Of a stretch of DNA of 41,886 nt, positions 19,963-40,838 are shown piece by piece; position 1 is the stretch's first letter, and every line of letters begins with the position of its first letter. The DNA is from a virus (Duplodnaviria; Heunggongvirae; Uroviricota; Caudoviricetes), in the IMG/VR virus record IMGVR_UViG_2529292907_000015, positions 1 through 41,886 of that record. One strand, given 5' to 3'. The notes under the pieces are model-generated. The model was not told the DNA's origin. It did not search any database and worked only from the letters and a program-made list of their open reading frames with translations. Position numbers and translations under genes: made by a program.

Positions 19963-20109
19963 TAACATTTCCCATCTGTAGAGGAGGGGCGGGTCAAATC
20001 TCTGCAACCCTGGCTGCTCAGTACCGCCGCCTGACCTTTCCTCGCATCGCCGCAGGTTCGAAAACTTTTTTTTGGAATGTGATTAAATGATTGATAGGTA
20101 AAACCGATT

Positions 20110-20592
20110 ATGTCAGGACCCCCGAAAACCCCGCCACGCCTGCATTTGATACGAGGCAACCCCTCAAAGCGCCCCGTTAAAGACCCAAAAAAAACCGCTA
20201 AAAAGGATGAAAAAGGTCTCCCTAAAATTCCGCAACATTTAGGGGCGCAGGGAAAGTACTGGTTCAGACGAATGGCGGAAGAACTGAATGCGGAAGGGAT
20301 CATTTCTCAGCTTGATGCGCGTGCACTCGAGTTACTGGTGGAAGCCTACACCGAATACCGGCATCACTGCGAAACACTCGATGTTGAGGGGTATACCTAC
20401 CGCACGGAAACGCAGAATGGCGATGTGATGATCAAGGCACATCCGGCTGCGGCGATGAAAGCGGATGCCTGGAAGCGGATCCGGGCGATGCTTGCAGAGT
20501 TTGATATGTCACCGGCAAGCCGGGCGAAAGTAAATACCGCCGGACCGGATGATGTTGATCCGCTGGCGGAACTTTTAAAAGCGAGAGACTGA
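20110..20592 (+). CDS. terminase small subunit (P27 family)
   Basis: 160-aa ORF with a basic N-terminus. Stop overlaps the large-subunit start. Confidence 0.7.
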   Translation: MSGPPKTPPRLHLIRGNPSKRPVKDPKKTAKKDEKGLPKIPQHLGAQGKYWFRRMAEELNAEGIISQLDARALELLVEAYTEYRHHCETLDVEGYTYRTETQNGDVMIKAHPAAAMKADAWKRIRAMLAEFDMSPASRAKVNTAGPDDVDPLAELLKARD

Positions 20593-22349
20593 TGGCAAAA
20601 GTGGCTGACGGGATCCGCTACGCCGAACGTGTTGTTGCAGGAGAAATTGTCGCTGGCGAATTTGTCCGTCTGGCCTGCCAGCGTTTTCTTGATGATCTGA
20701 AGTACGGCGAAGAGCGGGGGATTTATTTCAGTGAACCCCGTGCGCAGCACATCCTGAATTTCTACAAATTTGTGCCCCATGTGAAAGGGGCGCTGGCAGG
20801 CCAGCCCATTGAACTGATGGACTGGCATGTATTTATCCTCATTAATATTTTTGGTTTTGTCATTCCGCTGGTCAATGAAGAGACCGGGGAAGTTGTCATG
20901 CGCAGCGATGGCAGCGGACGTCCGGTGATGGTGCGCCGGTTCCGTACGGCGTACAACGAAGTCGCCCGTAAAAACGCAAAATCAACCCTGTCATCGGGTA
21001 TCGGCCTGTATATGACGGGGGCAGATGGTGAAGGCGGTGCTGAGGTGTATTCAGCCGCAACCACGCGTGACCAGGCCAGAATTGTGTTTGAAGACGCCAA
21101 AAATATGGTCAGAAAAGCCCGGTCGACACTCGGGCGATTGTTTGATTTCAACAAGCTGGCGATTTACCAGGAGCAGAGCGCATCAAAATTTGAACCGCTT
21201 TCCTCGGATGCAAACAACCTGGACGGTCTGAACATCCACTGCGCCATTATTGATGAGCTGCATGCACATAAAACCCGCGACGTGTGGGACGTTCTGGAAA
21301 CGGCAACCGGTGCCCGTCTGCAGTCCCTGTTATTTGGTATCACCACGGCGGGCTTTAACAAGGAAGGGATTTGTTACGAGCAACGCGATTACGCCATCAA
21401 GGTATTGCGAGGCTATAACAGCGACGTGGAGGGCGCGGTAAAAGATGATTCCTACTTTGCGATTATTTACACGCTCGATGAGGGAGATGATCCGTTTGAT
21501 GAAACGGTCTGGCAGAAAGCGAATCCCGGCCTGGGCATCTGTAAACGCTGGGATGATCTGCGTCGTCTGGCGAAAAAAGCGAAAGAACAGGTCTCTGCGC
21601 GGGTGAATTTTTTTACCAAACACATGAATGTGTGGGTCACTGCCGAATCTGCCTGGATGGATATGATTAAGTGGGAGAAGTGCGAATACATTGCTCCACA
21701 ACATGAGCTGAAAACATATCCCATGTGGGTCGGCGTCGACCTTGCTCATAAGATTGATATCTGTGCGGCGGCAAAACTCTGGCGAACCGATAACGGACAT
21801 GTTCATGCTGATTTTAAATTCTGGCTTCCGGAAGGACGGCTGGAACGATGCTCGCGGCAGCAGGCAGAACTTTACCGGAAGTGGGCGGAGATGGATAAGC
21901 TCATCCTGACGGATGGTGATGTTATCGATCATGCTCAGATAAAAAGTGACTTACTGGAATGGATTGGCGGTGAAAACCTCAGGGAACTGGGATTTGACCC
22001 GTGGAGCGCAATGCAGTTCAGCCTGGCACTGGCTGAAGAAGGGATACCGCTGGTGGAGGTTCCGCAGACGGTCCGCAATCTGTCAGAGGCCATGAAGGAA
22101 ACGGAATCACTGGTTTATGCCGGGCGTTTCCATCACAGCAATCATCCGGTCATGAACTGGATGATGTCTAACGTTACTGTAAAACCGGACAAAAACGACA
22201 ACATCTTCCCGAATAAATCCACGCCGGAAGCCAAAATCGACGGCCCTGTTGCGCTTTTTACAGCCATGAGCCGCTTTCTGGTAAATGGCGGGGGCGTGAA
22301 TGATTTTCTGTCCACGCTTGATCCTGATGAGGACCTTTTAATTCTGTGA
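20592..22349 (+). CDS. terminase large subunit
   Basis: 585-aa ORF with ATPase and nuclease regions. TGATG-coupled to terS. Confidence 0.85.
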   Translation: MAKVADGIRYAERVVAGEIVAGEFVRLACQRFLDDLKYGEERGIYFSEPRAQHILNFYKFVPHVKGALAGQPIELMDWHVFILINIFGFVIPLVNEETGEVVMRSDGSGRPVMVRRFRTAYNEVARKNAKSTLSSGIGLYMTGADGEGGAEVYSAATTRDQARIVFEDAKNMVRKARSTLGRLFDFNKLAIYQEQSASKFEPLSSDANNLDGLNIHCAIIDELHAHKTRDVWDVLETATGARLQSLLFGITTAGFNKEGICYEQRDYAIKVLRGYNSDVEGAVKDDSYFAIIYTLDEGDDPFDETVWQKANPGLGICKRWDDLRRLAKKAKEQVSARVNFFTKHMNVWVTAESAWMDMIKWEKCEYIAPQHELKTYPMWVGVDLAHKIDICAAAKLWRTDNGHVHADFKFWLPEGRLERCSRQQAELYRKWAEMDKLILTDGDVIDHAQIKSDLLEWIGGENLRELGFDPWSAMQFSLALAEEGIPLVEVPQTVRNLSEAMKETESLVYAGRFHHSNHPVMNWMMSNVTVKPDKNDNIFPNKSTPEAKIDGPVALFTAMSRFLVNGGGVNDFLSTLDPDEDLLIL

Positions 22350-22366
22350 AACAGCTTATTACTGAT

Positions 22367-22507
22367 ATGACCGGGTTGATCGGTTTCGGTTTGCTCACTG
22401 CTGGCGTTTATCTGTATGCAGGTCTGCCAGCGTCTCTGATGCTGTCGGGCTGTTTGTTGCTGCTTTATGCACTGGTGGTGTCCATGAGGAGAAAACATGC
22501 TTCTTGA
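22367..22507 (+). CDS. 46-aa hydrophobic peptide (putative)
   Basis: MTGLIGFGLLTAGVYLYAGLPASLMLSGCLLLLYALVVSMRRKHAS between terL and portal. No clear SD. Confidence 0.2.
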   Translation: MTGLIGFGLLTAGVYLYAGLPASLMLSGCLLLLYALVVSMRRKHAS

Positions 22508-23723
22508 TGCTCTGTTTCGCAGTGAGCCTCTGGAAAATCCCTCGGTTCCTGTAACCGGAGAGGCCGCTGAGACGGATAATATTTTTGCCCGGGATGTGTA
22601 TGTCAGTCCGGAAACATCCATGAAGCTGGCTGCTGTCTATGCCTGTATTTATGTTATTTCATCCAGTGTGGCTCAGATGCCCCTGCATGTGATGCGAAAA
22701 ACGAATGAGCATGTTCAGCCGGCACGCGATCATCCGTTGTTCTGGCTCGTTCATGATGAACCTAATGCCTGGCAGACCAGCTATAAGTGGCGGGAACTGA
22801 AGCAGCGTCATGTGCTGGGGTGGGGCAATGGTTATACGTGGGTAAAACGTAATCGTCGTGGAGAGGTTACCAGCCTTGAATGCTGTATGCCATGGGAAAC
22901 CACGTTACTTAACACCGGTGGGCGTCATACTTACGGGGTGTATAACGAAGAGGGTGCATTTGCGGTAAGTCCGGACGACATGATCCATATCAGGGCGCTG
23001 GGAAACAATCAGAAAATGGGACTGAGCCCGATCATGCAGCATGCTGAAACCATTGGTATGGGAATGAGTGGCCAGCAGTATACCAGCGCCTTTTTTAACG
23101 GTAATGCCCGTCCCGCCGGTATTATTTCTGTGAAAAATGAACTGAACGAACAAAGCTGGGGCAGGCTTAAAAATATGTGGCAGCGGGCGGTGACAGCGCT
23201 TCGCAGCCAGGAAAATAAAACCATGTTGCTGCCTGCGCAACTGGATTACCGCGCTCTGACAGTTTCTCCGGTGGATGCTCAGATCATTGATATGACCAAG
23301 CTGAACCGGTCGATGATTGCCGGGATTTTTAATGTCCCGGCGCACATGATTAATGACCTGGAAAAAGCCACATTTTCGAATATTACGCAGCAGGCGATTC
23401 AGTTTGTTCGCTACACGATGATGCCCTGGGTTGCGAACTGGGAGCAGGAGCTTAACCGTCGCCTGTTTACCCGTACAGAACGGGCTGCCGGGTATTACGT
23501 TCGTTTCAACCTCACGGGGTTGCTCCGTGGGACCCCACAGGAGCGTGCGCAGTTCTATCACTTTGCCATTACAGATGGCTGGATGAGTCGGAATGAAGCC
23601 AGGGCATTTGAGGATATGAACCCGGTTGACGGTCTGGATGAAATGCTGGTCAGCGTAAATGCAGCAAATCCGTTGAATAACTTTAAAGATACGAAAGGCA
23701 AAGAGGAAAAGAACGATGAATGA
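22497..23723 (+). CDS. portal protein (HK97 family)
   Basis: 408-aa ORF with a GAGGAG SD. Follows terL and precedes the prohead protease. Confidence 0.85.
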   Translation: MLLDALFRSEPLENPSVPVTGEAAETDNIFARDVYVSPETSMKLAAVYACIYVISSSVAQMPLHVMRKTNEHVQPARDHPLFWLVHDEPNAWQTSYKWRELKQRHVLGWGNGYTWVKRNRRGEVTSLECCMPWETTLLNTGGRHTYGVYNEEGAFAVSPDDMIHIRALGNNQKMGLSPIMQHAETIGMGMSGQQYTSAFFNGNARPAGIISVKNELNEQSWGRLKNMWQRAVTALRSQENKTMLLPAQLDYRALTVSPVDAQIIDMTKLNRSMIAGIFNVPAHMINDLEKATFSNITQQAIQFVRYTMMPWVANWEQELNRRLFTRTERAAGYYVRFNLTGLLRGTPQERAQFYHFAITDGWMSRNEARAFEDMNPVDGLDEMLVSVNAANPLNNFKDTKGKEEKNDE

Positions 23724-24315
23724 CCGTGAAACGCGCTGTTACAGCGGGGAGGTGCGGGCGGAACAATATGATAATGCCCCGACCCACATTCTGGGGTATG
23801 GCTCGGTATTTAACAGTCGTTCAGAACCTCTGTGGGGATTTCGTGAAATCATCAAGCCGGGGGCTTTTGATGATGTACTGAATGATGATGTACGTGGCTT
23901 GTTTAATCATGATCCTAATTTCATTCTCGGACGAAGTTCTGCCGGCACGTTGTCATTGTCGGTGGATGAACGCGGTTTACGTTATGACATTGTTGCACCG
24001 GATACTCCGACTATTTGTGACCTGGTGCTGTCTCCAATGTTGCGTGGTGACATTAATCAGTCCTCGTTCGCGTTTCGTGTCGCCCGTGACGGAGAGAGCT
24101 GGTATGAAGACGACGAGGGGATTGTTATCCGGGAAATCACGCGCATTTCTCGTCTGTATGACGTCAGCCCGGTGACATATCCGGCCTATCAGGACGCAGA
24201 CTCTGGTGTCCGCTCAATGAAAGCCTGGCAGGAAGCGCGGGCGAGTGGTGCGCTGAAGAAAGCTGTTAACGAACGAATGGCGCGTGAGCGTCTTTTGACC
24301 CTTCTTAATGCATAA
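23716..24315 (+). CDS. prohead protease (HK97 family)
   Basis: 199-aa ORF overlapping the portal stop. Order is portal-protease-capsid. Confidence 0.8.
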   Translation: MNDRETRCYSGEVRAEQYDNAPTHILGYGSVFNSRSEPLWGFREIIKPGAFDDVLNDDVRGLFNHDPNFILGRSSAGTLSLSVDERGLRYDIVAPDTPTICDLVLSPMLRGDINQSSFAFRVARDGESWYEDDEGIVIREITRISRLYDVSPVTYPAYQDADSGVRSMKAWQEARASGALKKAVNERMARERLLTLLNA

Positions 24316-24329
24316 GGATACTACTGACG

Positions 24330-25547
24330 ATGAAACTTCATGAGATGAAGCAAAAACGAAACACCATTGCAAAGGATATGCGTGCACTGCATGAAAAAAT
24401 TGGTGATAACGCATGGACTGATGAGCAACGGGCAGAGTGGAACAGGGCGAAAGCTGAGCTGGATGCGCTCGATGAGCAAATCGCCCGTGAAGAAGAGTTG
24501 CGCCGTCAGGATCAGGCATATGTGGATGAGTCCGGGCCGGAAGAGCGCCAGAATAATGAGGCGGAGAACGGGAAAAAGGCGGTGGAAGAGAAGCGCGCTG
24601 CGGCATTTAACCGTTTTCTGCGTGCCGGATTTGCAGAACTGAATGCTGAAGAGCGTAATCTGATGCGTGAACTGCGGGCTCAGAGTGTAACAACAGATTC
24701 TCAGGGCGGATATACGGTGCCCACGCAGATGCGTAACAAAATCATTGACACCATGAAGGCTTATGGCGGGATTGCCAGTGTGGCGCAACTTCTGACCACG
24801 TCAACCGGGCAGGATATCACCTGGTCAACGTCTGACGGCACGACTGAAGAGGGCGAACTGCTGGCGGAAAATACAGCCGCAACGGAACAGGATGTGACGT
24901 TCGGGACTGCTATTCTGGGGGCTAAAAAGCTGTCATCAAAAATAATTCGTGTGTCCAATGAGCTGCTCCAGGACAGTGGGGTGGATATTGAATCTTATCT
25001 GGCAAACCGTATTGCCCAGCGTATTGGTCGTGGAGAGGCAAAATATCTGGTTCAGGGGACCGGAACGGGATCACCGTTACAGCCAAAAGGGCTGGCAGCG
25101 TCGGTGACGGGAACCATCCAGACTGCAGCCTCTGCCGCTTTCACCTGGAAAGAAATGAATGCCCTGAAACATGCCATTGATCCGGCATATCGTGGTGGGC
25201 CGAAATACCGCTGGGCATTCAATGATGCCACATTGCAGACTATTGAAGAGATGGAGGATGGACAGAAACGCCCGTTATGGCTGCCGGATATTGCAGGCGG
25301 TACGCCGGCTACTGTGCTGGGGATCCCTTATGTTATTGATCAGGCTATTGACGGGATTGGTACCGGAAAAAAATTCATTTTCCTGGGGGATTTCAACCGC
25401 TTTATCATTCGCCGCGTTACTTATATGGAACTGAAACGTCTGGTTGAGCGTTATGCTGAGTTTGATCAGGTGGCGTTTCTGGCTTTCCATCGTTTTGACT
25501 GTGTGCTGGAAGATGTGGCAGCCATCAAGGCGCTCACTGGCAAATAA
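24330..25547 (+). CDS. major capsid protein (HK97 fold)
   Basis: 405-aa ORF with an N-terminal coiled-coil delta domain followed by the capsid domain. An intrinsic terminator follows. Confidence 0.85.
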   Translation: MKLHEMKQKRNTIAKDMRALHEKIGDNAWTDEQRAEWNRAKAELDALDEQIAREEELRRQDQAYVDESGPEERQNNEAENGKKAVEEKRAAAFNRFLRAGFAELNAEERNLMRELRAQSVTTDSQGGYTVPTQMRNKIIDTMKAYGGIASVAQLLTTSTGQDITWSTSDGTTEEGELLAENTAATEQDVTFGTAILGAKKLSSKIIRVSNELLQDSGVDIESYLANRIAQRIGRGEAKYLVQGTGTGSPLQPKGLAASVTGTIQTAASAAFTWKEMNALKHAIDPAYRGGPKYRWAFNDATLQTIEEMEDGQKRPLWLPDIAGGTPATVLGIPYVIDQAIDGIGTGKKFIFLGDFNRFIIRRVTYMELKRLVERYAEFDQVAFLAFHRFDCVLEDVAAIKALTGK

Positions 25548-25568
25548 CCACTCGTTGTTCAGTTACAG

Positions 25569-25591
25569 ACCGCGCCGACGCGGTTTTTTTT
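25569..25591 (+). terminator. rho-independent terminator after the capsid gene
   Basis: Stem ACCGCG/CGCGGT with loop CCGA, followed by T8. Confidence 0.75.
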
Positions 25592-25624
25592 ATGCCCGCA
25601 CAGTGTTGCGGGCAGGAGTTTCTG

Positions 25625-25942
25625 ATGGCAGCAATAGTGGAAAAACTCAGGGCGCAGTGCCGTATTGATACAGATGATGCAACTGATGATGAGTTACTGA
25701 TGCTGTATTTCCGGGCTGCCTGCCGCAAGGCAGAAAATTTTATCAACCGTAAGCTTTATGAGGAGACGGTGCCGGAAGGTGATCCTGAAGGGGTGCTTAT
25801 AGCTGATGATGTTTTGTTGGCGCTCATGTTGCTGGTCGGACACTGGTACGAAAACCGGGAAAATTCCTCAGATGTCAGCAAGGCACCAGTTCCGTTTGGT
25901 TTTTCTTCTCTGCTGGAGCCTTATCGTTTTATTCCTTTGTAG
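25625..25942 (+). CDS. head-tail connector protein (gp6-like)
   Basis: ATG 25625 with an AGGAG SD (the ORF track opens at 25592). Position is after the capsid gene. Confidence 0.6.
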   Translation: MAAIVEKLRAQCRIDTDDATDDELLMLYFRAACRKAENFINRKLYEETVPEGDPEGVLIADDVLLALMLLVGHWYENRENSSDVSKAPVPFGFSSLLEPYRFIPL

Positions 25943-25950
25943 GAGGAGGC

Positions 25951-26289
25951 ATGCAGGCGGGCAGATTACGTGATCGCGTAATTATTCTGAATGTCACCAC
26001 CGTTCGCTCTCCGTCAGGGCATCCGGTGGAGACGGTGACGGAGGGAGCTACCGTATGGGCAGAAGTTAAGGGGATCAGCGGGAGGGAGAGAATCTCAGGC
26101 GGAGCAGAAACCGCTCAGGCTACGGTCAGAGTCTGGATGAGATTCCGACGCGATGTGACGGCAGCTTCACGTCTGAAAGTGCTGACCGGTGCATTCAAAG
26201 GAGCCATTCTTGGTATAGAAGGGCCACCAATACCGGATGCACGCGCCACCCGGCTTGAAATGCTCTGCAGTCTGAAGGGGAATGTGTGA
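25951..26289 (+). CDS. head-tail adaptor / head closure protein
   Basis: 112-aa ORF in the conserved HK97-type order. Confidence 0.6.
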   Translation: MQAGRLRDRVIILNVTTVRSPSGHPVETVTEGATVWAEVKGISGRERISGGAETAQATVRVWMRFRRDVTAASRLKVLTGAFKGAILGIEGPPIPDARATRLEMLCSLKGNV

Positions 26290-26735
26290 TGGATTTCAGT
26301 CTTGATTTTTCAGGTCTGGCGGATATTGCACGGGATCTGGAGACGCTCAGCAGGGCAGAAAACAATAAGGTGCTGCGCGATGCCACCCGTGCCGGTGCTG
26401 AAGTTATGCGGGATGCGGTTGTTGAACGTGCGCCGGAGCGAACCGGAAAACTGAAGAAAAATGTGGTTGTTCTGACTCAGCGCTCAAAGCGTCGGGGGGA
26501 AATTATTTCTGGTATCCATATTCGCGGACGGAACCTGCGAACCGGAAACAGTGATAACAGCATGAAAGCCAGCGATCCCCGAAATGCGTTTTACTGGCGC
26601 TTTGTGGAGCTGGGAACGATAAACATGCCCGCGCATCCATTCATTCGCCCGGCTTTCGATACGACAGAGGAGCTGGCGGCGCAGGTTGCCATACAGCGAA
26701 TGAATCAGGCTATTGATGAGGTCTTAAGTAAATGA
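26286..26735 (+). CDS. HK97 gp10-family tail component
   Basis: 149-aa ORF with overlapping start and stop. Confidence 0.6.
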   Translation: MMDFSLDFSGLADIARDLETLSRAENNKVLRDATRAGAEVMRDAVVERAPERTGKLKKNVVVLTQRSKRRGEIISGIHIRGRNLRTGNSDNSMKASDPRNAFYWRFVELGTINMPAHPFIRPAFDTTEELAAQVAIQRMNQAIDEVLSK

Positions 26736-27076
26736 GGGAAGCCACACTGTATTCCCTGCTGTCTCAGTTGGCCGGAGGACAGGTTTATCCTTATGTGGTC
26801 CCGCTGACGGAGGGAAAGCCTGCGGTATCTCCGCCGTGGCTGGTGTTTTCTGTGGTGTCTGACACGGCGTCTGATGTGCTTGATGGTCAGGCTGAATCCA
26901 GAATTACCGTGCAGATCGATGTCTGGGCAACGGTACCTGATGATGCTGATGGTATTCGCGAGCAGGCGCTTGATGCGGTAAGGGAACTGGCACCCTCCGT
27001 TATTTCTAAAACGCAGGGTTATGATCCTGATTCCCGTCTGAACAGAGCCACGCTTGAATTTCAGGTAATAGCCTGA
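26732..27076 (+). CDS. tail terminator / tail completion protein (U-like position)
   Basis: 114-aa ORF immediately upstream of the major tail gene. Confidence 0.55.
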   Translation: MREATLYSLLSQLAGGQVYPYVVPLTEGKPAVSPPWLVFSVVSDTASDVLDGQAESRITVQIDVWATVPDDADGIREQALDAVRELAPSVISKTQGYDPDSRLNRATLEFQVIA

Positions 27077-27135
27077 GGTTGTTAATGATTTTACCCACCC
27101 GCCGCTGGCGGGTTTTTTATTTTCAGGAGACGAAT

Positions 27136-27840
27136 ATGTCCTCTAATTTTGAGCGTTCGCAACTGACGAAAATTATGATTTCGTCTGCACCGGTAACAGC
27201 AGAAACCCTGGATTCTGCCAGCTATCTTGGCCTGAGCTGTACAATCAAAGAGGTGCAGTTTACCGCAGGACAAAAGCAGGATATTGATGTCACCACGCTG
27301 TGTTCTGTTGAGCAGGAAAATATTAACGGCCTTGGGGCTGCTTCAGAGATTTCCATGTCAGGCAACTTTTATCTCAATGCTGCCCAGAACGCGTTGCGCA
27401 GTGCCTATGACAATGACACCACGTATGGCTTTAAAGTTATTTTTCCGTCAGGCAACGGATTTACCTTTATGGCAGAGGTGCGTCAGCATACCTGGTCTGC
27501 AGGAACCAATGGTGTTGTGGCTGCAACGTTTTCCCTGCGCCTGAAAGGTAAACCTGTGCTGACGACAGAGCCGCTGAAAGTGAAGGTCGATTTAAACAGC
27601 ACGCTGCGGGTTTCTTCCGGAGCGAAACTTGAAATGGCGGTTGAGGCTGCGGGTGGTGTGCCGCCTTATTCTTATGCTTGGAAAAAAGGTGGTTCTCCTG
27701 TTTCCGGACAGACGGCGGCAACGTTCAGTAAGGCATCAGCAGCATCCGGTGATGCCGGTGCGTATACCTGCGAGATTTCTGATTCAGCAAGCCCGGTTAA
27801 CAAGGTGACCTCCACTTCCTGCACTGTTACCGTCAGTTAA
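27136..27840 (+). CDS. V: major tail protein with C-terminal Ig-like domain
   Basis: ATG 27136 with a CAGGAGA SD (the ORF track opens at 27079). C-terminal Ig-like segment. Precedes the G/GT chaperone pair. Confidence 0.75.
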   Translation: MSSNFERSQLTKIMISSAPVTAETLDSASYLGLSCTIKEVQFTAGQKQDIDVTTLCSVEQENINGLGAASEISMSGNFYLNAAQNALRSAYDNDTTYGFKVIFPSGNGFTFMAEVRQHTWSAGTNGVVAATFSLRLKGKPVLTTEPLKVKVDLNSTLRVSSGAKLEMAVEAAGGVPPYSYAWKKGGSPVSGQTAATFSKASAASGDAGAYTCEISDSASPVNKVTSTSCTVTVS

Positions 27841-28337
27841 TGAGGATAGATGTGATGACTAAAAATATCCGTAATCTGGCACTGGCAACGATGTCGGGGT
27901 TTCGCCATAAAACCGTTGATGTGCCTGAATGGGAAGGGGCAACGGTTGTGTTACGGGAACCTTCTGCAGAAGCCTGGTTGCGCTGGCAGGAGATCGTTAA
28001 AGCCAGGGAAGATGATACATCGCCATCTGTTGCAGAGCGTGCCCGCCGAAATCTGGAGGCGGACGTTGAACTGTTCATTGATGTTCTGTGTGATACCGGG
28101 CTGCAACCCGTATTTTCAGAGGGTGATCGTGAACAGGTGATTGCCGTGTATGGTCCGGTGCATGCCCGGCTTCTTCGCCAGTCTCTGGAACTGATCAGTG
28201 ATGCCGGAGAGGTTAAAAAAAGTAGCGCTTCCGGGGATGCGTTTTCTGATGATGCTGGCGCTCAGGATGGGGCGCACATTGTCAGAGTTACGCCGGGAAA
28301 TGTCCGCATCAGAAATCATGATGTGGGCAGAATTTGA
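27840..28337 (+). CDS. G: tail assembly chaperone G
   Basis: ATG 27840 is coupled to the V stop; an alternative ATG at 27855 has a GAGGA SD. A7 slippery run at 28215-28221. The overlapping downstream ORF is in the +1 frame. Confidence 0.7.
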   Translation: MRIDVMTKNIRNLALATMSGFRHKTVDVPEWEGATVVLREPSAEAWLRWQEIVKAREDDTSPSVAERARRNLEADVELFIDVLCDTGLQPVFSEGDREQVIAVYGPVHARLLRQSLELISDAGEVKKSSASGDAFSDDAGAQDGAHIVRVTPGNVRIRNHDVGRI

Positions 28338-28527
28338 CAGGTTCAGCCCGCTGGGGGACGAACGGGCTGATATCCGGGCTGCCCAGATTGTTTCAGCTGT
28401 TTACGGTGCGCAGGGGGTCAAAGTGCCACTGAATGATGCGCTTCTTCAGTGGGAGAAGGAGCAGACAGAAGGCACCTCAGATCCATTTGCTGAGATTGAG
28501 AAGGCATTATTTGTTGCAGCTCGATGA
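28198..28527 (+). CDS. T-domain reading frame of the G-T frameshift fusion chaperone
   Basis: Frame opens at 28195 with no independent SD and overlaps the G 3' end. Conserved G/GT arrangement upstream of the tape measure gene. Confidence 0.6.
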   Translation: MMPERLKKVALPGMRFLMMLALRMGRTLSELRREMSASEIMMWAEFDRFSPLGDERADIRAAQIVSAVYGAQGVKVPLNDALLQWEKEQTEGTSDPFAEIEKALFVAAR

Positions 28528-28584
28528 TCTTTTCACTTTACTGGATTATTATTCCCACTTTATTGAGAAAGTAAGGAAACATTG

Positions 28585-28926
28585 ATGGAATTTTTACTTA
28601 TTTCAATAGTTTTGGGACTAATTCCAGCTATTATTGCGAAAAGCAAAGGTCGCTCATTTTTAGGATGGTGGGTATATGGTGCGATGATCTTTATTGTTGC
28701 TCTGGTTCATTCGCTAGTAATCCAAAGAGATGAGAAGGCACATGAACAACAAATGGTAAGCAATGGCATGAAGAAATGCCCTTACTGTGCGGAGTTGATC
28801 AAAGAAGAGGCTATTAAATGTAAGCATTGTGGTAGTGATTTAATTTGCAATGCAGATAGTTCCGTTTCACAAAAAACGGATGATGAATATCTTCAGGAAG
28901 CAAGGCGTAAGGCCGGACTTCTTTAA
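28585..28926 (+). CDS. membrane protein with C-terminal zinc-ribbon (moron)
   Basis: 113-aa product with two hydrophobic segments then CPYC...CKHC. AAGGAAA SD. AT-rich. Its own intrinsic terminator follows. Confidence 0.6.
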
Positions 28927-28935
28927 AGAATACAA

Positions 28936-28958
28936 AAACCGCTTCGGCGGTTTTTTTT
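28936..28958 (+). terminator. rho-independent terminator of the moron
   Basis: Stem CCGC/GCGG with loop TTCG, followed by T8. Confidence 0.75.
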
Positions 28959-28968
28959 CGTCCGGAGA

Positions 28969-31900
28969 ATGAGTGTGGCGACATTACGTGAACTGATTAT
29001 TAAAATCTCGGCAAACTCCCGGTCATTCCAGTCAGAGATCGCCCGGGCTTCGCGTATGGGGCAGGATTACTACCGCACCATGCAGAACGGAGGTCGACAG
29101 TCTGCTGCTGCATCCCGTGAAATGCGGCGTGCACTGGCAGAAGTGACGGATCAGATAAATACAGCTAAATCTTCGGCACTGAATATGGCGGGGGCATTTG
29201 CCGGGGCTTTTGCTACCGGTCATCTTATTTCTCTCGCCGATGAGTGGAATTCAGTAAATGCCCGTCTGAAGCAGGCCTCACAGTCCAGTGATGATTTTCA
29301 GGCATCACAGCGTGAATTAATGGCGATCAGCCAGAGAACGGGGACGGCGTTTTCTGATAACGCCAGCCTTTTTGCCCGTTCTGCAGCTTCCATGCGGGAG
29401 TATGGTTACAGTTCTGAGGAGGTACTGAAAGTCACCGAGGCGATCTCCACGGGCCTGAAATTATCCGGTGCCAGTACAGCAGAAGCCAGTTCAGTGATCA
29501 CGCAGTTCAGTCAGGCACTGGCGCAGGGAGTGCTGCGCGGTGAAGAGTTTAACTCGGTGAATGAGAACGGCGATCGTGTTATTCGTGCGCTGGCTGCGGG
29601 AATGGGGGTTGCCCGTAAGGATCTGAAGGCCATGGCGGATAACGGAAAGTTGACCGCCGATAAGGTTGTTCCTGCACTGATTAGTCAGCTTGGGGCATTA
29701 CGTGATGAATATGCGGCAATGCCTGATACGGTTTCATCCTCTGCAACCAAAGTTGAAAACGCCTTTATGGCCTGGGTTGGTGGTGCGAACGAGGCAAGCG
29801 GAGTGACAAAGACACTCACCGGGGTGTTGAATGGTGTTGCAGACAATATTGATACCGTGGCTACTGCAGCTGGCGCACTGGTTGCCGTCGGGGTAGCCCG
29901 ATATTTTGGCAATATGGCGTCGTCTGCTGGATCTGCAACTGCCGGATTAATTACTGCAGCCAGAAACGAAGTGGTTCTTGCTGAAGCGCAACTTCGGGGG
30001 ACACAGATAGCAACCGCCAGGGCGCGTGCGGCGGTTTATCGTGCGCAACAGGCGGTTGTTGCTGCTCGCGGTACCGAAAGGCAGGCCGCAGCAGAAGCGA
30101 AGCTGACAGCTGCCCAGGCGTCACTTACCCGTAATATTGCGGCCAGAACAGCGGCACAGACAACGCTGAATACTGTCACGTCAGTGGGGAGTCGTCTGTT
30201 AAGTGGTGCGCTGGGGCTGGTTGGTGGTGTGCCGGGACTCGTCATGCTGGGGGCGACGGCCTGGTACGCGATGTATCAGAATCAGGAGCAGGCCAGAGAA
30301 TCTGCACGCCAGTATGCCGCAACAATCGACGAAATTCGCCAGAAAACGTCGGCAATGTCGCTTCCTGAAGCGTCAGATAATGAGGAAAAGACGCGGCAGG
30401 CACTTGATGAGCAAAACAGGTTAATTGACGAGCAGAAAAGTAAGATTAAATCCTTACAGGAAAAAATTGCTGGCTATCAGTATGTGCTGGCAAACCCGGG
30501 CTGGACAACCGATAACGGTTTTATGATTAACCACATGACGTCGGTAAAAACTGTCACAGAAGGGCTTGCAGAAGCAACAAATCAACTGGCAGTTGAACAG
30601 TCCCGTCTCACACAAATGCAGGGCAAAGCGCAATCCATTCAGGATGTGCTTGCCGGGCTGGAGGAGCGACGGGTGGCGTTGATCCGTCAACAGGCAGCGG
30701 AACAAAACAAAGCGTATCAGTCCCTGTTGATCATGAATGGGCAGCATACCGAGTTTAATCGCCTTCTCGGGCTCGGTAATGAATTACTTCAGCAGCGACA
30801 GGGGCTGGTGAATGTACCGTTACGGCTACCACAGGCAACCCTGGATGATAAACAGCAGACCGCACTGAATAACAGCAAGCGCGAACTGGCTCTGTCCCGC
30901 CTGAAGGGGGAAGCGCGTGAGCGTGCCCGACTGGGCTATGCTGCGGATGATCTCGGCTTTGTGGGAGAGGCGTATCAGACAGCCAGACAGAATTATATCA
31001 ATAACTCACTGGATGCCTGGCGAAATAACCAGGCAAATAAACCGCATAAAAAACCGAAGCGGAAAAAACAGAGGATATTTATAAACGGCTGATTAAACAG
31101 CAAAAAGAACAGATAGCACTGGCAGGGCAGAATACTGAACTGGCTAAGATGAAATATCAGGTCAGTCAGGGCGAATTATCAACCCTGTCAGAAGCGCAGA
31201 AAAAAACGCTTTTGCAGAATGCAGCACTCATCGACCAGAAAAAGATTCGTGAGCAGCTTGCTGCGTATGAGAGCAGTCTGGCGGACAGTAATGCCAGTGC
31301 CCGGGCATCTGACGAAGCGCAGTTGCTGGGATATGGTGAAGGCTCACGGATGCGTGAACGACTCCAGGAAATGTGGAGTATCCGGCAGACGTTTGAGCAG
31401 AAAAATAACGAGCTGCTGAGACAGTATCAGGCCGGAGAAATTGAAGAAGCCCTGTGGAAACAGGAGAAAGAACTGAATAAAAAATATCTGGAAGAGCGTC
31501 TCAGCGATCAGCAGAATTATTATGCAAAGGCCGATGCTTTACGTAATAACTGGAATGCCGGACTCCAGGAGGGACTGACCAACTGGGCAGACAGTGCCAC
31601 CGATTATGCTTCACAGGCGGCAGATGCTGTCGTTTCCACGATGGACGGGCTGGTATCAAATATTTCCGATGCACTGGCCGGGAATGTTGTGGACTGGAGG
31701 AACTGGGGGAGTTCAGTTCTCCGGGAAGTTTCAAAAATTCTGATGAATGCAGCCATTGTTAACGGACTGAAATCACTCTCCGGTGCCGGAGGGTGGCTTG
31801 GTACGGTCGGCGGATGGATTTCGGGGGCAGTGGCAAACGCAAAAGGTGGTGTTTACACATCGGCAAATCTGAGTGCTTACAGTAACACTATTGTGGATAC

Positions 31901-32195
31901 ACCGACGTATTTTGCTTTTGCGAAAGGTGCCGGGTTGATGGGCGAGGCCGGGCCTGAAGCAATCATGCCACTGACACGGGCAGCGGACGGCTCTCTTGGG
32001 GTCAGGGCCATTGGAAATGTGAATGGTGGCGGTGGATTTGTTTATTCTCCCGTGTATCACATCAGCATTCAGAATCAAGGGAGCAATGGCGAGATAGATG
32101 CGCGCTCAGCCAGGGGACTGGTGGATCTGATCGACAGCAGGGTTGTGTCAATTATGCAGTCATCGCGTCGGGATGGAGGATTGTACAGTGCCTGA
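28969..32195 (+). CDS. H: tail tape measure protein, split into two reading frames near an A6 run
   Basis: ORF 28969..31092 (707 aa) has tape-measure-like N-terminal and coiled-coil regions. The next frame opens at 31050 and continues to 32195 with a Gly-rich C-terminal region. Inserting one A at 31048-31053 gives one continuous ORF. Confidence 0.75.
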
Positions 32196-32529
32196 GCCTG
32201 AAGTTTTTAACTGGATCCCCCGTGAGGGGATGGAGACGACACGAAAGCCATCAGTTATTACGGTAAAGTTTGGTGACGGATATGAACAGCGACGGGCTGG
32301 TGGTCTGAATGCGGATCTGAAAACGTTTAAACCGGTATTTCGTGTCACAGATGAATATTCCCGTGCCGCGCTGGACAGTTTTTTATCCCGTCATGCCGGG
32401 ATTCGTGCTTTTTTGTGGCGTCCGCCAAAACACAACAGGACTGTCCGGGTTGTCTGCAGGGAGTGGAGTATTTCGGATAATGCCATGTATACCGATTTTA
32501 ACTGTACCTTTGAAGAGGTCACTCACTGA
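32188..32529 (+). CDS. M: minor tail protein M
   Basis: GTG 32188 with a GGAGGA SD 7 nt upstream. Product resembles lambda M as recalled (VRFGDGY...AGLNA...FLW.PP). Confidence 0.75.
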   Translation: MPEPEVFNWIPREGMETTRKPSVITVKFGDGYEQRRAGGLNADLKTFKPVFRVTDEYSRAALDSFLSRHAGIRAFLWRPPKHNRTVRVVCREWSISDNAMYTDFNCTFEEVTH

Positions 32530-33227
32530 TGCAGGATATACAGCAGGAAACACTTAATGAGTGCACTAAAACGGAGCAATCCGCGCTGGTCGTGCTCTGG
32601 GAAATTGATCTGACAGAGGTCGGCGGAGATCGTTATTTCTTCTGTAATGAGCAGAACGAAAAAGGTGAGCCGGTCACATGGCAGGGGCGACAGTATCAGG
32701 CGTACCCTATTCAGGGGAGCGGCTTTGAGATGAACGGCAAGGGAGCCAGTGCAAGGCCAACGCTGAAAGTCTCTAATCTGCACGGCATGGTCACCGGGAT
32801 GGCTGAAGATCTGCAGAGTCTGGTCGGCGGAACGGTGGTCCGGCGTAAGGTTTACGCCCGTTTTCTGGATGCGGTGAACTTCGTCAACGGAAACAGTGAC
32901 GCCGATCCGGAGCAGGAGGTGATCAGCCGCTGGCGCATTGAGCAGTGCAGCGAACTGAGTGCGGTGAGTGCCTCCTTTGTGCTCTCCACGCCGACGGAAA
33001 CGGATGGTGCCGTTTTTCCGGGGCGCATCATGCTGGCCAACACCTGTACCTGGACCTATCGTGGTGATGAGTGCGGTTATCACGGTCCGGCGGTCGCGGA
33101 TGAATATGACCAGCCGACATCCGATATCACGAAGGATAAATGCAGCAAATGCCTGAGTGGTTGCAAGTTCCGCAATAACCTCGGCAACTTTGGCGGTTAC
33201 CTTTCCATTAACAAACTTTCGCAGTAA
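32529..33227 (+). CDS. L: minor tail protein L
   Basis: 232-aa product beginning MQDIQQETLNECTKTEQSALVVLWEIDLTEVGGDRYFFCNEQNEKGEPVTWQGRQYQ..., near-identical to lambda L as I recall it. Confidence 0.9.
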   Translation: MQDIQQETLNECTKTEQSALVVLWEIDLTEVGGDRYFFCNEQNEKGEPVTWQGRQYQAYPIQGSGFEMNGKGASARPTLKVSNLHGMVTGMAEDLQSLVGGTVVRRKVYARFLDAVNFVNGNSDADPEQEVISRWRIEQCSELSAVSASFVLSTPTETDGAVFPGRIMLANTCTWTYRGDECGYHGPAVADEYDQPTSDITKDKCSKCLSGCKFRNNLGNFGGYLSINKLSQ

Positions 33228-33231
33228 TCCC

Positions 33232-33975
33232 ATGACAGAGACAGAATCAGTGATTCTGGCGCACGTCCGGCGATGTGCGCCAGCGGAGTCGTGCGGCTTC
33301 GTGGTGAGAACGCCGGAAGGGGAAAGATATTTTCCCTGCGTGAATATCTCCGGTGAGCCGGAGGATTATTTCCGGATGGCTCCGGAGGACTGGCTGCAGG
33401 CCAAAATGCAGGGTGAGATTGTGGCGCTGGTCCACAGTCACCCCGGTGGTCTGCCCTGGCTGAGTGAGGCTGACCGGCGGCTGCAGGTGCAGAGTGATTT
33501 GCCGTGGTGGCTGGTCTGCCGGGGGGCGATTCACAAGTTCCGCTGTGTGCCACATCTTACCGGGCGGCGCTTTGAGCACGGGGTGACGGACTGTTACACG
33601 CTGTTCCGGGATGCATACCATCTGGCGGGAATTGAGATGCCGGATTTTCATCGCGGGGATGACTGGTGGCGTAACGGTCAGAATCTCTATCTGGATAATC
33701 TGGAGGCCACGGGGCTGTATCAGGTGCCGTTGTCATCAGCACAACCGGGCGATGTGCTGTTGTGCTGTTTTGGTTCATCGGTGCCGAATCATGCCGCCAT
33801 TTACTGTGGTGACGGCGAGCTGCTGCACCATATTCCTGAACAACTGAGCAAACGAGAGAGGTATACCGACAAATGGCAGCGACGCACACACTCCCTCTGG
33901 CGTCACCGGGCATGGCACGCATCTGCCTTTACGGGGATTTACAACGATTTGGCCGCCGCATCGACCTTCGTGTAA
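33232..33975 (+). CDS. K: tail assembly protein K (Mov34/JAMM plus NlpC/P60-like)
   Basis: ATG 33232, inside the longer 33157..33975 ORF. HSHP motif present. Position is between L and I. Confidence 0.75.
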   Translation: MTETESVILAHVRRCAPAESCGFVVRTPEGERYFPCVNISGEPEDYFRMAPEDWLQAKMQGEIVALVHSHPGGLPWLSEADRRLQVQSDLPWWLVCRGAIHKFRCVPHLTGRRFEHGVTDCYTLFRDAYHLAGIEMPDFHRGDDWWRNGQNLYLDNLEATGLYQVPLSSAQPGDVLLCCFGSSVPNHAAIYCGDGELLHHIPEQLSKRERYTDKWQRRTHSLWRHRAWHASAFTGIYNDLAAASTFV

Positions 33976-34519
33976 AACGGGGGCTGAAGCCATCCGGGCG
34001 CTGTCCACACAGGTCCCGGCGTTTCGTCAGAAACTGAATGACGGCTGGTATCAGGTGCGCATTGCCGGGCGTGATGCAGGCGAAAATGAATTATCTGCCC
34101 GTCTTAATGAACCGCTGGCAAATGGTGCCGTGATCCACATCGTTCCGCGTCTGGCGGGTGCCAAAAGTGGCGGTGTGTTTCAGGCGGTGCTGGGTGCGGC
34201 GCTGATTGCGGTGGCATGGTGGAACCCTGTTGGCTGGCTGGGGGCCGCGGCTGTATCTGGTATGTATGCAGCAGGGGCCAGTATGATCCTGGGTGGTGTG
34301 GCGCAGATGCTGGCACCGAAAGCCAGGACGCCCACGGCAGCCAGTACAGATAACGGCAAACAGAACACCTATTTCTCGTCACTGGATAACATGGTTGCCC
34401 AGGGCAATGTTCTGCCTGTTCTGTACGGGGAAATGCGCGTGGGGTCACGTGTTGTTTCTCAGGAGATCAGCACGGCAGACGAAGGGGACGGTGGTCAGGT
34501 TGTGGTGATTGGTCGCTGA
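33873..34519 (+). CDS. I: tail assembly protein I, frame-disrupted at an A4 run
   Basis: N-terminal 34 codons (MAATHTLPLASPGMARICLYGDLQRFGRRIDLRVK) are in frame 0 from ATG 33873. The rest (TGAEAIRAL...GGQVVVIGR) is in frame 2. The junction is at AAAA 33974-33977, and one extra A gives a continuous lambda-I-like protein. Confidence 0.7.
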
Positions 34520-34539
34520 TGCAAAATATTTTATGTGAA

Positions 34540-34562
34540 ACCGCCTCCGGGCGGTTTTGTCG
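34540..34562 (+). terminator. terminator-like hairpin between I and J
   Basis: Stem CCGCC/GGCGG with loop TCCG, followed by TTTTGTCGTTT. Confidence 0.4.
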
Positions 34563-34579
34563 TTTATGGAGCGTTAGGA

Positions 34580-37500
34580 ATGGGTAAAGGCAGCAGTAAG
34601 GGGCATACCCCGCGCGAAGCGAAGGACAACCTGAAGTCCACGCAGTTGCTGAGTGTGATCGATGCTATTAGCGAAGGGCCGATTGAAGGTCCGGTGGATG
34701 GATTAAAAAGCGTGCTGCTGAACAGTACGCCGGTGCTGGACAGTGAGGGGAATACCAATATCTCCGGTGTCACGGTGGTGTTCCGGGCCGGTGAGCAGGA
34801 GCAGACACCGCCGGAGGGTTTTGAATCCTCCGGTTCCGAGACGGTGCTGGGTACGGAAGTGAAATATGACACGCCGATCACCCGGACCATCACGTCGGCA
34901 AACATTGACCGTCTGCGCTTTACCTTCGGTGTGCAGGCACTGGTGGAAACCACCTCAAAGGGTGACCGGAATCCGTCAGAAGTCCGCCTGCTGGTTCAGA
35001 TACAACGTAACGGTGGCTGGGTGACGGAAAAAGACATCACCATTAAGGGCAAAACCACGTCGCAGTATCTGGCCTCGGTGGTGGTGGATAACCTGCCGCC
35101 GCGCCCGTTTAATATCCGGATGCGCAGGATGACGCCGGACAGCACCACAGACCAGCTGCAGAACAAAACGCTCTGGTCGTCATACACCGAAATCATCGAT
35201 GTGAAACAGTGCTACCCGAACACGGCACTGGTCGGCGTGCAGGTGGATTCGGAACAGTTCGGCAGCCAGCAGGTGAGCCGTAATTATCATCTGCGCGGGC
35301 GTATTCTGCAGGTGCCGTCGAATTATAACCCGCAGACGCGGCAATACAGCGGTATCTGGGACGGAACGTTTAAACCGGCATACAGCAACAACATGGCCTG
35401 GTGTCTGTGGGATATGCTGACCCATCCGCGCTACGGCATGGGGAAACGTCTTGGTGCGGCGGATGTGGATAAATGGGCGCTGTATGTCATCGGCCAGAAT
35501 TGCGACCAGTCGGTGCCGGATGGCTTTGGTGGCACGGAGCCGCGTATTACCTGTAATGCGTACCTGACCACGCAGCGCAAGGCGTGGGATGTGCTCAGTG
35601 ATTTCTGCTCGGCGATGCGCTGTATGCCGGTATGGAACGGGCAGACGCTGACGTTTGTGCAGGACCGGCCATCGGATAAGGTGTGGACCTATAACCGCAG
35701 TAATGTGGTGATGCCGGATGATGGCGCGCCGTTCCGCTACAGCTTCAGCGCCCTGAAAGACCGCCATAATGCCGTTGAGGTGAACTGGATTGACCCGAAC
35801 AACGGCTGGGAGACGGCGACAGAGCTTGTGGAGGATACGCAGGCCATTGCCCGTTACGGTCGTAACGTCACGAAGATGGATGCTTTTGGCTGTACCAGCC
35901 GGGGGCAGGCACACCGCGCCGGGCTGTGGCTGATTAAAACAGAACTGCTGGAAACGCAGACCGTGGACTTCAGCGTGGGCGCAGAAGGGCTTCGCCATGT
36001 GCCGGGCGATGTCATTGAAATCTGTGATGATGACTATGCCGGTATCAGCACCGGCGGGCGCGTGCTGGCGGTAAACAGCCAGACCCGGACGCTGACGCTC
36101 GACCGTGAAATCACGCTGCCATCCTCCGGCACCACGCTGATAAGCCTGGTTGACGGACAGGGGAATCCGGTCAGCGTGGAGGTCCAGTCCGTCACCGACG
36201 GCGTGAAGGTGAAAGTGAGCCGTGTTCCTGACGGCGTTGCCGAATACAGCGTGTGGGGGCTGAAGCTGCCGACGCTGCGCCAGCGCCTGTTCCGCTGCGT
36301 GAGTATCCGTGAGAACGATGACGGCACGTATGCCATCACCGCCGTGCAGCATGTACCGGAAAAAGAAGCCATCGTGGATAACGGGGCGCACTTTGACGGC
36401 GACCAGAGCGGCACGGTGAATGGTGTCACGCCGCCAGCGGTGCAGCACCTGACTGCCGAAGTCACCGCAGACAGCGGGGAGTATCAGGTACTGGCCCGCT
36501 GGGACACGCCGAAGGTGGTGAAGGGCGTGAGCTTCCTGCTTCGCCTGACCGTGGCAGCGGATGACGGCAGTGAGCGGCTGGTCAGCACGGCCAGGACGAC
36601 GGAAACCACATACCGCTTCACGCAACTGGCGCTGGGAAACTACAGGCTGACAGTCCGGGCGGCAAATGCCTGGGGGCAGCAGGGCGATCCGGCATCGGTA
36701 TCGTTCCGGATTGCCGCACCGGCAGCGCCGTCGCGGATTGAGCTGACGCCGGGCTATTTTCAGATAACCGCCACGCCGTATCTTGCCGTTTATGATCCGA
36801 CGGTACAGTTTGAGTTCTGGTTCTCAGAAAAGCGGATTGCGGATATCAGGCAGGTTGAAACCGCAGCCCGCTATCTTGGCTCGGCGCTGTACTGGATAGC
36901 TGCCAGTATCAATATCAAGCCGGGCCATGATTATTATTTTTATATCCGCAGTGTGAATACTGTTGGCAAATCGGCATTCGTGGAGGCTGTCGGTCGGGCG
37001 AGCGATGATGCGGAAGGTTACCTGGATTTTTTCAAAGGAGAAATCGGGAAAACACATCTGGCCCAGGAGCTGTGGACGCAGATTGATAACGGTCAGCTTG
37101 CGCCGGACCTGGCTGAAATCAGGACGTCCATTACGAATGTCAGCAATGAAATCACGCAGACCGTCAATAAAAAACTGGAAAATCAGAGTGCGGCAATCCA
37201 GCAGATACAGAAAGTTCAGGTTGATACAAATAATAACCTGAACAGCATGTGGGCCGTGAAACTGCAGCAGATGCAGGACGGACGCCTTTATATTGCGGGT
37301 ATCGGTGCCGGTATTGAGAATACGCCAGCAGGAATGCAGAGTCAGGTGCTGCTGGCGGCAGACAGGATTGCGATGATTAATCCTGCGAATGGCAACACAA
37401 AGCCGATGTTTGTTGGTCAGGGCGATCAGATATTTATGAATGAAGTGTTCCTGAAATATCTGACGGCTCCCACCATTACCAGCGGCGGTAATCCTCCGGC

Positions 37501-38059
37501 ATTTTCCCTGACACCGGACGGGCGGCTGACGGCGAAAAATGCCGATATCAGCGGTAACGTGAATGCGAACTCCGGGACGCTCAACAACGTCACGATTAAC
37601 GAGAACTGTCGGGTTCTGGGAAAATTGTCCGCGAACCAGATTGAAGGCGATCTCGTTAAAACAGTGGGCAAAGCTTTCCCCCGGGACTCCCGTGCACCGG
37701 AGCGGTGGCCATCAGGAACCATTACCGTCAGGGTTTATGACGATCAGCCGTTTGACCGGCAGATTGTTATTCCGGCGGTGGCATTCAGCGGCGCTAAACA
37801 TGAGAAAGAGCATACTGATATTTACTCCTCATGCCGTCTGATAGTGCGGAAAAACGGTGCTGAAATTTATAACCGTACCGCGCTGGATAATACGCTGATT
37901 TACAGTGGTGTTATTGATATGCCTGCCGGTCACGGTCACATGACACTGGAGTTTTCGGTGTCAGCATGGCTGGTAAATAACTGGTATCCCACAGCAAGTA
38001 TCAGCGATTTGCTGGTTGTGGTGATGAAGAAAGCCACTGCAGGCATCACGATTAGCTGA
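34580..38059 (+). CDS. J: tail tip / host-specificity protein J
   Basis: ATG 34580 ([20 protein letters not shown]...), inside the longer 34535..38059 ORF. N-terminal two-thirds closely resemble lambda J as recalled; the C-terminal part appears divergent. Confidence 0.9.
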
Positions 38060-38078
38060 ATTTTATAACCCAGATACG

Positions 38079-38102
38079 GGCGCCAGAAATGGCGCCTTTT
38101 TT
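38079..38102 (+). terminator. rho-independent terminator after J
   Basis: Stem GGCGCC/GGCGCC with loop AGAAAT, followed by T6. Confidence 0.75.
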
Positions 38103-38126
38103 ATTGCAGAAAAGCGAGAGGTAATT

Positions 38127-38726
38127 ATGCGTAAATTATGTGCTGTTATTTTGTCCGCAGTAGTCTGGCAGGTCGCCGCTGCTACGCCAGCGAGTGCAGC
38201 AGAACATCAGTCCACGCTGAGCGCGGGGTATCTCCATGCCTCGACGAACGTTCCCGGTAGTGATGATCTGAACGGGATTAACGTGAAATACCGTTATGAG
38301 TTTACGGATGCGCTGGGGCTGATTACGTCCTTCAGTTATGCCAATGCTGAGGATGAGCAAAAAACGCGCTACAGCGATACCCGCTGGCATGAAGATTCCG
38401 TTCGTAACCGCTGGTTCAGCGTAATGGCGGGGCCGTCTGTACGCGTGAATGAATGGTTCAGCGCGTATGCGATGGTGGGTGTGGCTTACAGCCGTGTGTC
38501 GACTTTCTCCGGGGATTATCTCCGCGTAACTGACAACAAGGGGAAAACGCACGATGTGCTGACCGGAAGTGATGACGGTCGCCACAGCAACACGTCTCTG
38601 GCGTGGGGAGCTGGCGTGCAGTTTAACCCGACCGAATCCGTGGCCATTGATATTGCTTATGAAGGCTCCGGCAGTGGCGACTGGCGCACTGACGGTTTCA
38701 TCATGGGTGTCGGTTATAAGTTCTGA
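38127..38726 (+). CDS. lom: outer membrane protein Lom (Ail/Lom family)
   Basis: 199-aa ORF with a signal peptide and beta-barrel-like pattern ending in the aromatic C-terminus GVGYKF. Position is after J. Confidence 0.8.
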   Translation: MRKLCAVILSAVVWQVAAATPASAAEHQSTLSAGYLHASTNVPGSDDLNGINVKYRYEFTDALGLITSFSYANAEDEQKTRYSDTRWHEDSVRNRWFSVMAGPSVRVNEWFSAYAMVGVAYSRVSTFSGDYLRVTDNKGKTHDVLTGSDDGRHSNTSLAWGAGVQFNPTESVAIDIAYEGSGSGDWRTDGFIMGVGYKF

Positions 38727-38753
38727 TTAGCCAGGTAACACAGTGTTATGACA

Positions 38754-38779
38754 GCCCGCCGGTTCAGGCGGGCTTTTTT
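38754..38779 (+). terminator. rho-independent terminator after lom
   Basis: Stem GCCCGCC/GCGGGC with a 7-nt loop, followed by T6. Confidence 0.75.
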
Positions 38780-38781
38780 GT

Positions 38782-38790
38782 GGGGGGGGG
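38782..38790. repeat. G9 homopolymer immediately upstream of the side tail fibre start codon
   Basis: GGGGGGGGG then AAT then ATG (38794). The tract overlaps the SD position. Confidence 0.9.
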
Positions 38791-38793
38791 AAT

Positions 38794-40224: not shown

Positions 40225-40838
40225 TGGAAGAAGTGGACTTTATTACTGCGGTCAGGAATGCCGCGTATAACGAATATGGCGCTATCACCTGCGAGGTACA
40301 GTTTGAGGGGGCCGTGGATACCAGAGGGGAGCCAATATGGTCCCCCTTTACGGCCACAGATTTGGATGTTACAGACTACGGAAAGAAATTGTATAACTCT
40401 CTGGTAAATGGCGAGTATGGTGAAGTCACCCCCTTCTCAGCCACACCTGAGATGCTGGAAAGAGAAAAAGTTGCCAGGTGTGAAGAAATTAATCTCTGGC
40501 GCGACCAGCAGGAGAGTATCGAATACCTGATGGAGTTTAACGGGCGCCGCTGGGATTACGGTAAGCGTACAAAGGAACGTATTTCAACCTCACTGACTGT
40601 CGCCAGAAATGGACAGCTACCTGAAGGTTTTGCCTGGACAGACGGTGATAACAATATCGTGCCCGTCACTGCGGCCGAGCTGCTGGCTCTGGGGGATGCC
40701 ATTGATCTGGCGATATTCAACAAAGGGGTGGAAATCAATACCCGCCAGATGCAGATGAAGGCTGAGGTCCGCGCGCTGCAAACACTGGAGGAAATTCGCG
40801 GGTACCGGATTGGCTGGCCGGAGGCGACAGGTGAGTAA
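40224..40838 (+). CDS. tfa: tail fibre assembly protein (Tfa-like)
   Basis: 204-aa ORF immediately after stf (ATG overlaps the stf stop). Assignment is positional; family not confirmed. Confidence 0.65.
   Translation: MEEVDFITAVRNAAYNEYGAITCEVQFEGAVDTRGEPIWSPFTATDLDVTDYGKKLYNSLVNGEYGEVTPFSATPEMLEREKVARCEEINLWRDQQESIEYLMEFNGRRWDYGKRTKERISTSLTVARNGQLPEGFAWTDGDNNIVPVTAAELLALGDAIDLAIFNKGVEINTRQMQMKAEVRALQTLEEIRGYRIGWPEATGE

Follow-up and report, generated by a model that had tools for sequence, protein, structure and literature searches.

A tail tape measure gene split at an A run in an Escherichia coli DEC6B prophage, most likely through a homopolymer undercall

In the window (the whole 41,886-nt stretch of DNA that was analysed), the tail tape measure gene H lies in two reading frames, and one A is missing at the break, in a run of six that has seven in relatives with the same allele. 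The split was judged to be a homopolymer undercall artefact and not a biological feature (probability roughly 0.8), the actual DEC6B chromosome most likely carrying an unbroken H (A7, 1073 aa). According to this reading the deposited DEC6B draft would under-call single-base run lengths; one A would have been dropped from A7 at 31048-31053, and the resulting frame shift would leave, on paper, ORFs of 705 and 348 aa, while an error of the same type would account for what look like frameshifts in Q, in the G/GT slippery run and in I. The cause would lie in read chemistry or assembly, of the type known as 454-pyrosequencing homopolymer undercalls; the platform was presumably 454-type, given the known behaviour of that chemistry and the project date.

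The ORFs 28969..31092 (+, 707 aa) and 31149..32195 (+, 348 aa), 56 nt apart, were present in the ORF list as written in a preliminary description of this DNA. Translation in three frames agreed with its statement that the second frame is already open from 31050, a TAA at 31047-31049 preceding it, and the A6 runs that it placed at 31048-31053 and 31063-31068 are exactly there, each read as AAA AAA in the first frame. The C-terminal piece is in the -1 frame relative to the N-terminal piece, which ends in a 14-residue out-of-frame tail (PKRKKQRIFING, then the stop). The first ORF had been given a start at 28969; its homologues begin at GTG 28975 instead. In a tblastn search, the tape measure protein (TMP) of MS6192 matched the window with residues 1-700 in frame 1 and residues 695-1075 in frame 3, at 98-99.5% identity for the two pieces (99.5% for residues 695-1075), as expected from the earlier claim of a single tape measure gene in two frames. 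Among Pfam families, PF20155 (TMP_3; 3.8e-58, 196.8 bits) and PF06120 (Phage_HK97_TLTM; 1.1e-92, 310.8 bits) were found in the first piece and PF09718 (Tape_meas_lam_C; 1.8e-14, 54 bits) in the second, all above cut-off. Judged by sequence similarity, the end-to-end match of the two pieces to one TMP is far beyond chance, and the two ORFs are pieces of one lambda/HK97-type tail tape measure gene. Tape measure proteins are long and mostly helical, and the length of the protein sets the length of the tail.

The missing base was located by alignment. TUM1881, which has the closest allele at the junction, reads CAT AAAAAAA CCG and the window CAT AAAAAA CCG, a one-base difference; a second allele group has AAAAAGA at 31048-31053 together with a 6-nt insert. 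A7 was found here in 16 independent sources, AAAAAGA in 11, and A6 only in DEC6B data. The deposited sequence holds no single continuous H frame; once one A was added to the first run, a 1073-aa protein without internal stop was obtained, 100% identical to the TMP of the near-clone GCA_900450015.1, and neither fragment of H carries any other change relative to the intact near-clone allele. The lesion is thus a one-base length change in a single-base run, with n+1 bases and an intact gene in the near-clone and 15 other sources. The preliminary description had allowed an extra A in either A6 run and a joined protein of about 1,050 aa: the first run stood, the second did not, and the repaired protein is longer than proposed. 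Repair at 31063-31068 gave HKKPKRKK..., which is in no homologue; since every intact relative also has A6 there, this run was rejected as the lesion. DEC6B is the sole recorded source of the truncated 705-aa product (EHV62924.1). Exact-pattern scans of metagenome, genome and viral collections gave no occurrence of the A6 allele, and a pattern tolerating 0-2 extra bases matched four contigs, all four with 7 bases at the site.

Against phage and prophage tail length tape measure genes the H interval aligned over its full length with 96-98.5% DNA identity, and the junction was matched in about 1000 complete E. coli genomes. In TUM1881, SMS-3-5, MS6192 and phage vB_EcoM-606R7, H is one uninterrupted CDS of 1073 or 1075 aa, and every relative examined has one gene of 1064-1091 aa. 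Alignment to intact tape measure homologues, which the preliminary description had proposed as a check, gave a single frame in all 27 independent sources and no two-gene arrangement. In the window and in annotated relatives the major tail gene is followed by the G/GT chaperones, H and then M, L, K, I and J. Nine other assemblies encode an identical K protein, and in 9/9 both the TMP (1064-1073 aa) and I are intact.

Two further features of gene content were recorded in this comparison. A gene for a 113-aa zinc-ribbon protein (PF13248; window 28585-28926) is inserted between T and the tape measure gene; many relatives have it, it is absent from others (e.g. SMS-3-5 and MS6192), and it looks like a moron. 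The related prophage of TUM1881 has its large terminase gene broken by an insert of ~17 kb (locus L005, 3452-22103). The insert looks like a satellite or second phage, having an integrase, capsid, portal and terminase genes of its own, and an IS3 element.

By exact-protein matches the window was identified as part of contig AIFW01000009.1 of the E. coli DEC6B draft GCA_000249615.2, window position x corresponding to AIFW01000009.1 position x + 99674; the prophage lies between an integrase next to yccA and hyaA. The near-clone GCA_900450015.1 (UGEP01000005.1) has the same prophage at the same site, with 100% identity to window 1-11020 and with 2 substitutions and 1 gap over 20.3 kb including 10 kb of host genes. 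GCA_002917315.1 and GCA_013074065.1 provided further independent, near-identical copies of parts of the prophage. DEC6B was compared with the near-clone over window 1-21368, window 25896-41886 and 10 kb of host flank (about 47 kb), and each site was checked in a second draft (GCA_013074065.1 up to 21368, GCA_002917315.1 for the tail module). The comparators agreed with each other at all compared sites. The coordinates of the features are collected in Table 1.

Table 1. The two pieces of H, the two A6 runs and the one-base A/T-run contractions private to DEC6B (window coordinates)
Feature	Position or interval	Run	Strand	DEC6B	Relatives	Remark
H N-terminal piece	28975..31092		+			705 aa from GTG 28975; 707 aa from ATG 28969
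H C-terminal piece	31050..32195		+			open from 31050; first ATG 31149, giving 348 aa
First A6 run, site of missing base	31048..31053		+	A6	A7 in same-allele relatives	from alignments
Second A6 run	31063..31068		+	A6	A6 in all intact relatives	A5 in SRR094137 assembly
Non-coding T tracts	13097..13107		+	T4-A-T6	T5-A-T7 or T5-A-T8	non-coding
Contraction, non-coding	13100			T4	T5
Contraction, non-coding	13101			T6	T7 or T8
Contraction, apparently upstream of a 91-aa gene called in the near-clone	13653	13654..13658	+	T5	T6	T6 in 5/5 related loci
Contraction, antiterminator Q	15553	15554..15560	+	A7	A8
Contraction, G/GT slippery run	28214	28215..28221	+	A7	A8
Contraction, tape measure gene H	31047	31048..31053	+	A6	A7
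Contraction, K stop / I overlap	33973	33974..33977	+	A4	A5

Three substitutions (at 20504, 38402 and 38423) and seven one-base contractions of A/T runs (Table 1) were private to DEC6B, and the same ~47-kb comparison gave no one-base expansion in DEC6B. Seven of seven indels in one direction correspond to a two-sided p = 0.016, and at least seven indels alongside three substitutions have P < 1e-3 even at an indel:substitution ratio of 0.5. The rate of contraction rises with run length (4 of ~15 runs of at least 7, 3 of ~138 runs of 5-6), and four of the seven contractions break phage late genes or their recoding site, namely Q, the G/GT slippery run, H and I. No indels were seen in the adjoining 10 kb of host genes; this does not count against the error model, because that stretch has only three A/T runs of at least 6. 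Since DEC6B is one base short at six other single-base runs, the H split is most likely a sequencing miscall. The either/or of the preliminary description, a defective tail or a homopolymer miscall, was supported, the contractions at the six other runs favouring the miscall.

A second assembly was available in the Logan contigs of SRR094137, which cover window 18432-28604 and 28611-32669 (14.2 kb) with 0 substitutions and carry the TerS allele with the private DEC6B base at 20504, on record nowhere else. From these sequences we infer that the contigs come from DEC6B itself or from a sibling that cannot be told apart from it. Three single-base runs set them apart from the GenBank assembly: G/GT (A8, not A7, which restores the canonical arrangement), 28591-28595 (T4, not T5) and 31063-31068 (A5, not A6). 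DEC6B run lengths therefore vary with the assembler, a sign that the reads are noisy in run length; the two adjacent short H runs of the SRR094137 assembly are more readily explained by flow-type undercalling than by two independent real deletions 15 nt apart. Both assemblies read A6 at 31048-31053. This counts against the artefact reading, as most reads may favour A6.

The agreement of the two assemblies would also follow from a real and very recent slipped-strand deletion (A7 to A6) in DEC6B, which was considered unlikely. The TMP would then end after residue 691 with a 14-residue junk tail, the C-terminal third with the lambda-type domain would not be made in useful amounts, no tails would be built and the prophage would be tail-defective, lambda H being essential and setting tail length. 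An A7 run is a natural slippage hot spot, and related prophages do show real slippage in runs of this kind, which likewise speaks against an artefact. Late genes of related prophages also have real-looking lesions of other kinds: SRR29324797 and three similar places have a GAA-to-TAA nonsense change at the position matching 31107, and the near-clone has an insertion of ~1.3 kb in its major tail protein gene. Against a real deletion stand the restriction of the A6 allele to DEC6B data, the otherwise 100% identity of the H fragments to the intact allele, and the number of events that it would need, with four simultaneous private late-gene frameshifts and seven private contractions against three substitutions; such a mutation spectrum is unexpected from natural processes, even in mismatch-repair mutators. 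In addition, at least one sibling contraction (G/GT) was not reproduced in the SRR094137 assembly. Nor does the pattern resemble an inherited pseudogene: the lesion is confined to DEC6B data, and the H fragments show no other decay. Were the deletion real, DEC6B would only add to the tail-defective lambdoid prophages that are common in E. coli.

The prophage of SRR29324797 (locus L007), with 99.93% identity over 6 kb, reads A7 at the run and has its nonsense change 59 nt downstream, leaving products of 711 and 348 aa; it looks as if H was genuinely and independently knocked out there. The insertion in the near-clone (locus L027, 1408-2715, at about window 27300) is probably an IS element; its ends overlap by 5 bp, and DEC6B lacks it.

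The other broken late genes were compared with closer relatives in the same way. At G/GT, relatives read GTT AAA AAA AAG TAG (A8) with T in the -1 frame; with A7 in the window, G extends to 160 aa and T falls in the +1/-2 frame, which does not fit the canonical A AAA AAG slip. G in its 160-aa form was found on >150 contigs, one 160-aa variant alone on 151, and the G/GT run is polymorphic or repeatedly miscalled well beyond DEC6B. Q (window 15423-16111) is split into 52 aa and a C-terminal part for which 173 aa were called; with A8, as in the near-clone and another close relative, Q is intact at 229 aa. The break falls at CGA AAA AAA TCC, where A AAA AAA is in frame and the C-terminal part continues in the -1 frame. 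The 52-aa N-terminal fragment (A7 allele) was found on about 92 contigs in several different prophage contexts, and two complete genomes, IMT5155 and S931B, have Q marked 'frameshifted' by PGAP. That annotation fits a real deletion, and the occurrence of Q and G A7 alleles in many other assemblies argues against an artefact. At K/I, near-clones with A5 have an intact 215-aa tail assembly protein I, and A4 in the window puts the first ~33-39 codons of I out of frame. A 154-aa I product in other assemblies, including Shigella sonnei, was considered as a shared real frameshift and rejected: the corresponding Logan contigs have A5 and an intact frame in 4/4, and the short product comes from the gene caller's choice of start codon. 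Likewise, comparison with MS6192 suggested loss of a non-run T or G for the Q and I lesions, and closer relatives showed A8 to A7 and A5 to A4 instead.

It is scarcely credible that A6 is real and the gene still works, through a -1 slip of tRNA-Lys on AAA AAA or stuttering of RNA polymerase that restores the frame; a fraction of the products would then be the exact wild-type protein, and the lesion would be leaky or switchable, not null. The zero frame reads CAT AAA AAA CCG, slipping by -1 at the second AAA yields ...HKKTEAEK..., the same as in the intact protein, and the prophage has its own tRNA-Lys(UUU) gene. Set against this, the T before the run makes the heptamer U AAA AAA, which is not a canonical X XXY YYZ; the 77 nt downstream have an MFE of -8.4 kcal/mol (z = -0.85), with 36 of 200 shuffles folding at least as well, and so hold no structure above background; and the two-frame arrangement is kept in 0 of 27 independent homologous sources. 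There is no conserved recoding site, because all 27 are single ORFs. A programmed -1 frameshift at H was rejected on these three counts. For efficient transcriptional slippage a run of A6 is short. If A6 is real, a trace of spontaneous slippage may still occur at H.

Very unlikely, too, is a reading in which the short runs are real and the slippage-prone A tracts (A8 in Q, A8 in G/GT, A7 in H, A5 at K/I) toggle virion production on and off. If it were true, occasional ribosomal or transcriptional slippage, perhaps aided by the phage tRNA-Lys(UUU), would restore some full-length TMP, and the two assemblies would disagree because the population was mixed, not because the reads were noisy. The tRNA-Lys gene is one of four phage tRNA genes downstream of Q (window 16306-16615): one with a CAT anticodon (Met per ARAGORN, tRNA-Ile in annotated relatives), Lys(UUU), Thr(UGU) and Gly(UCC).

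Two other variable tracts were noted in the window. A perfect (CCCAG)27 pentanucleotide repeat (window 12535-12669) lies inside a methyltransferase-like gene of the prophage, whose homologues match PF05050 and, weakly, PF02475. Its copy number among related prophages was 27, 26, 12, 10, 10 and 4; with 10 or 4 copies the gene forms a single ORF (298 or 288 aa), and with 27, 26 or 12 it is split in two. As far as sequences can tell, this is the pattern expected of a phase-variable repeat, and it is more interesting than the H split. A G9 run (window 38782-38790) lies just upstream of the start of the tail fibre gene; in relatives this site reads GGGGT-GA or GGAGTGG, and thus varies in both length and sequence.

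For users of the DEC6B draft, the apparent A/T-run frameshifts in Q, G/GT, H and I should be taken neither as prophage decay nor as recoding without a check of the reads. Whether the H split is the homopolymer undercall preferred here or an ordinary prophage pseudogene, it is nothing new in either case.

Compared with known systems, the H gene is of the lambda gpH / HK97 gp16 type, which it resembles in its position after the major tail gene, G/GT and the small zinc-ribbon insert and before M-L-K-I-J, and in its domains PF20155, PF06120 and PF09718. It differs in that the window gene, as deposited, is in two frames; its TMP is HK97-like in the N-terminal two-thirds and lambda-like in the C-terminal domain only, and lambda gpH, with 853 aa, is shorter than the 1073 aa found here. 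With programmed -1 sites (dnaX A AAA AAG; phage G/GT) the H break shares an in-frame AAA AAA at which a -1 slip regenerates the normal protein, but it does not belong to this class, its heptamer being non-canonical and without stimulatory structure, and its split unconserved; a true A AAA AAG plus stop site is found in relatives at G/GT, 2.8 kb upstream of the H break. The likeness to 454-type homopolymer undercalls lies in single-base losses that are confined to A/T runs and strictly one-directional in DEC6B, and in two assemblies of what is probably one strain that disagree on run lengths; the case differs in that both assemblies are short at 31048-31053 and in that the DEC6B platform is a presumed one.
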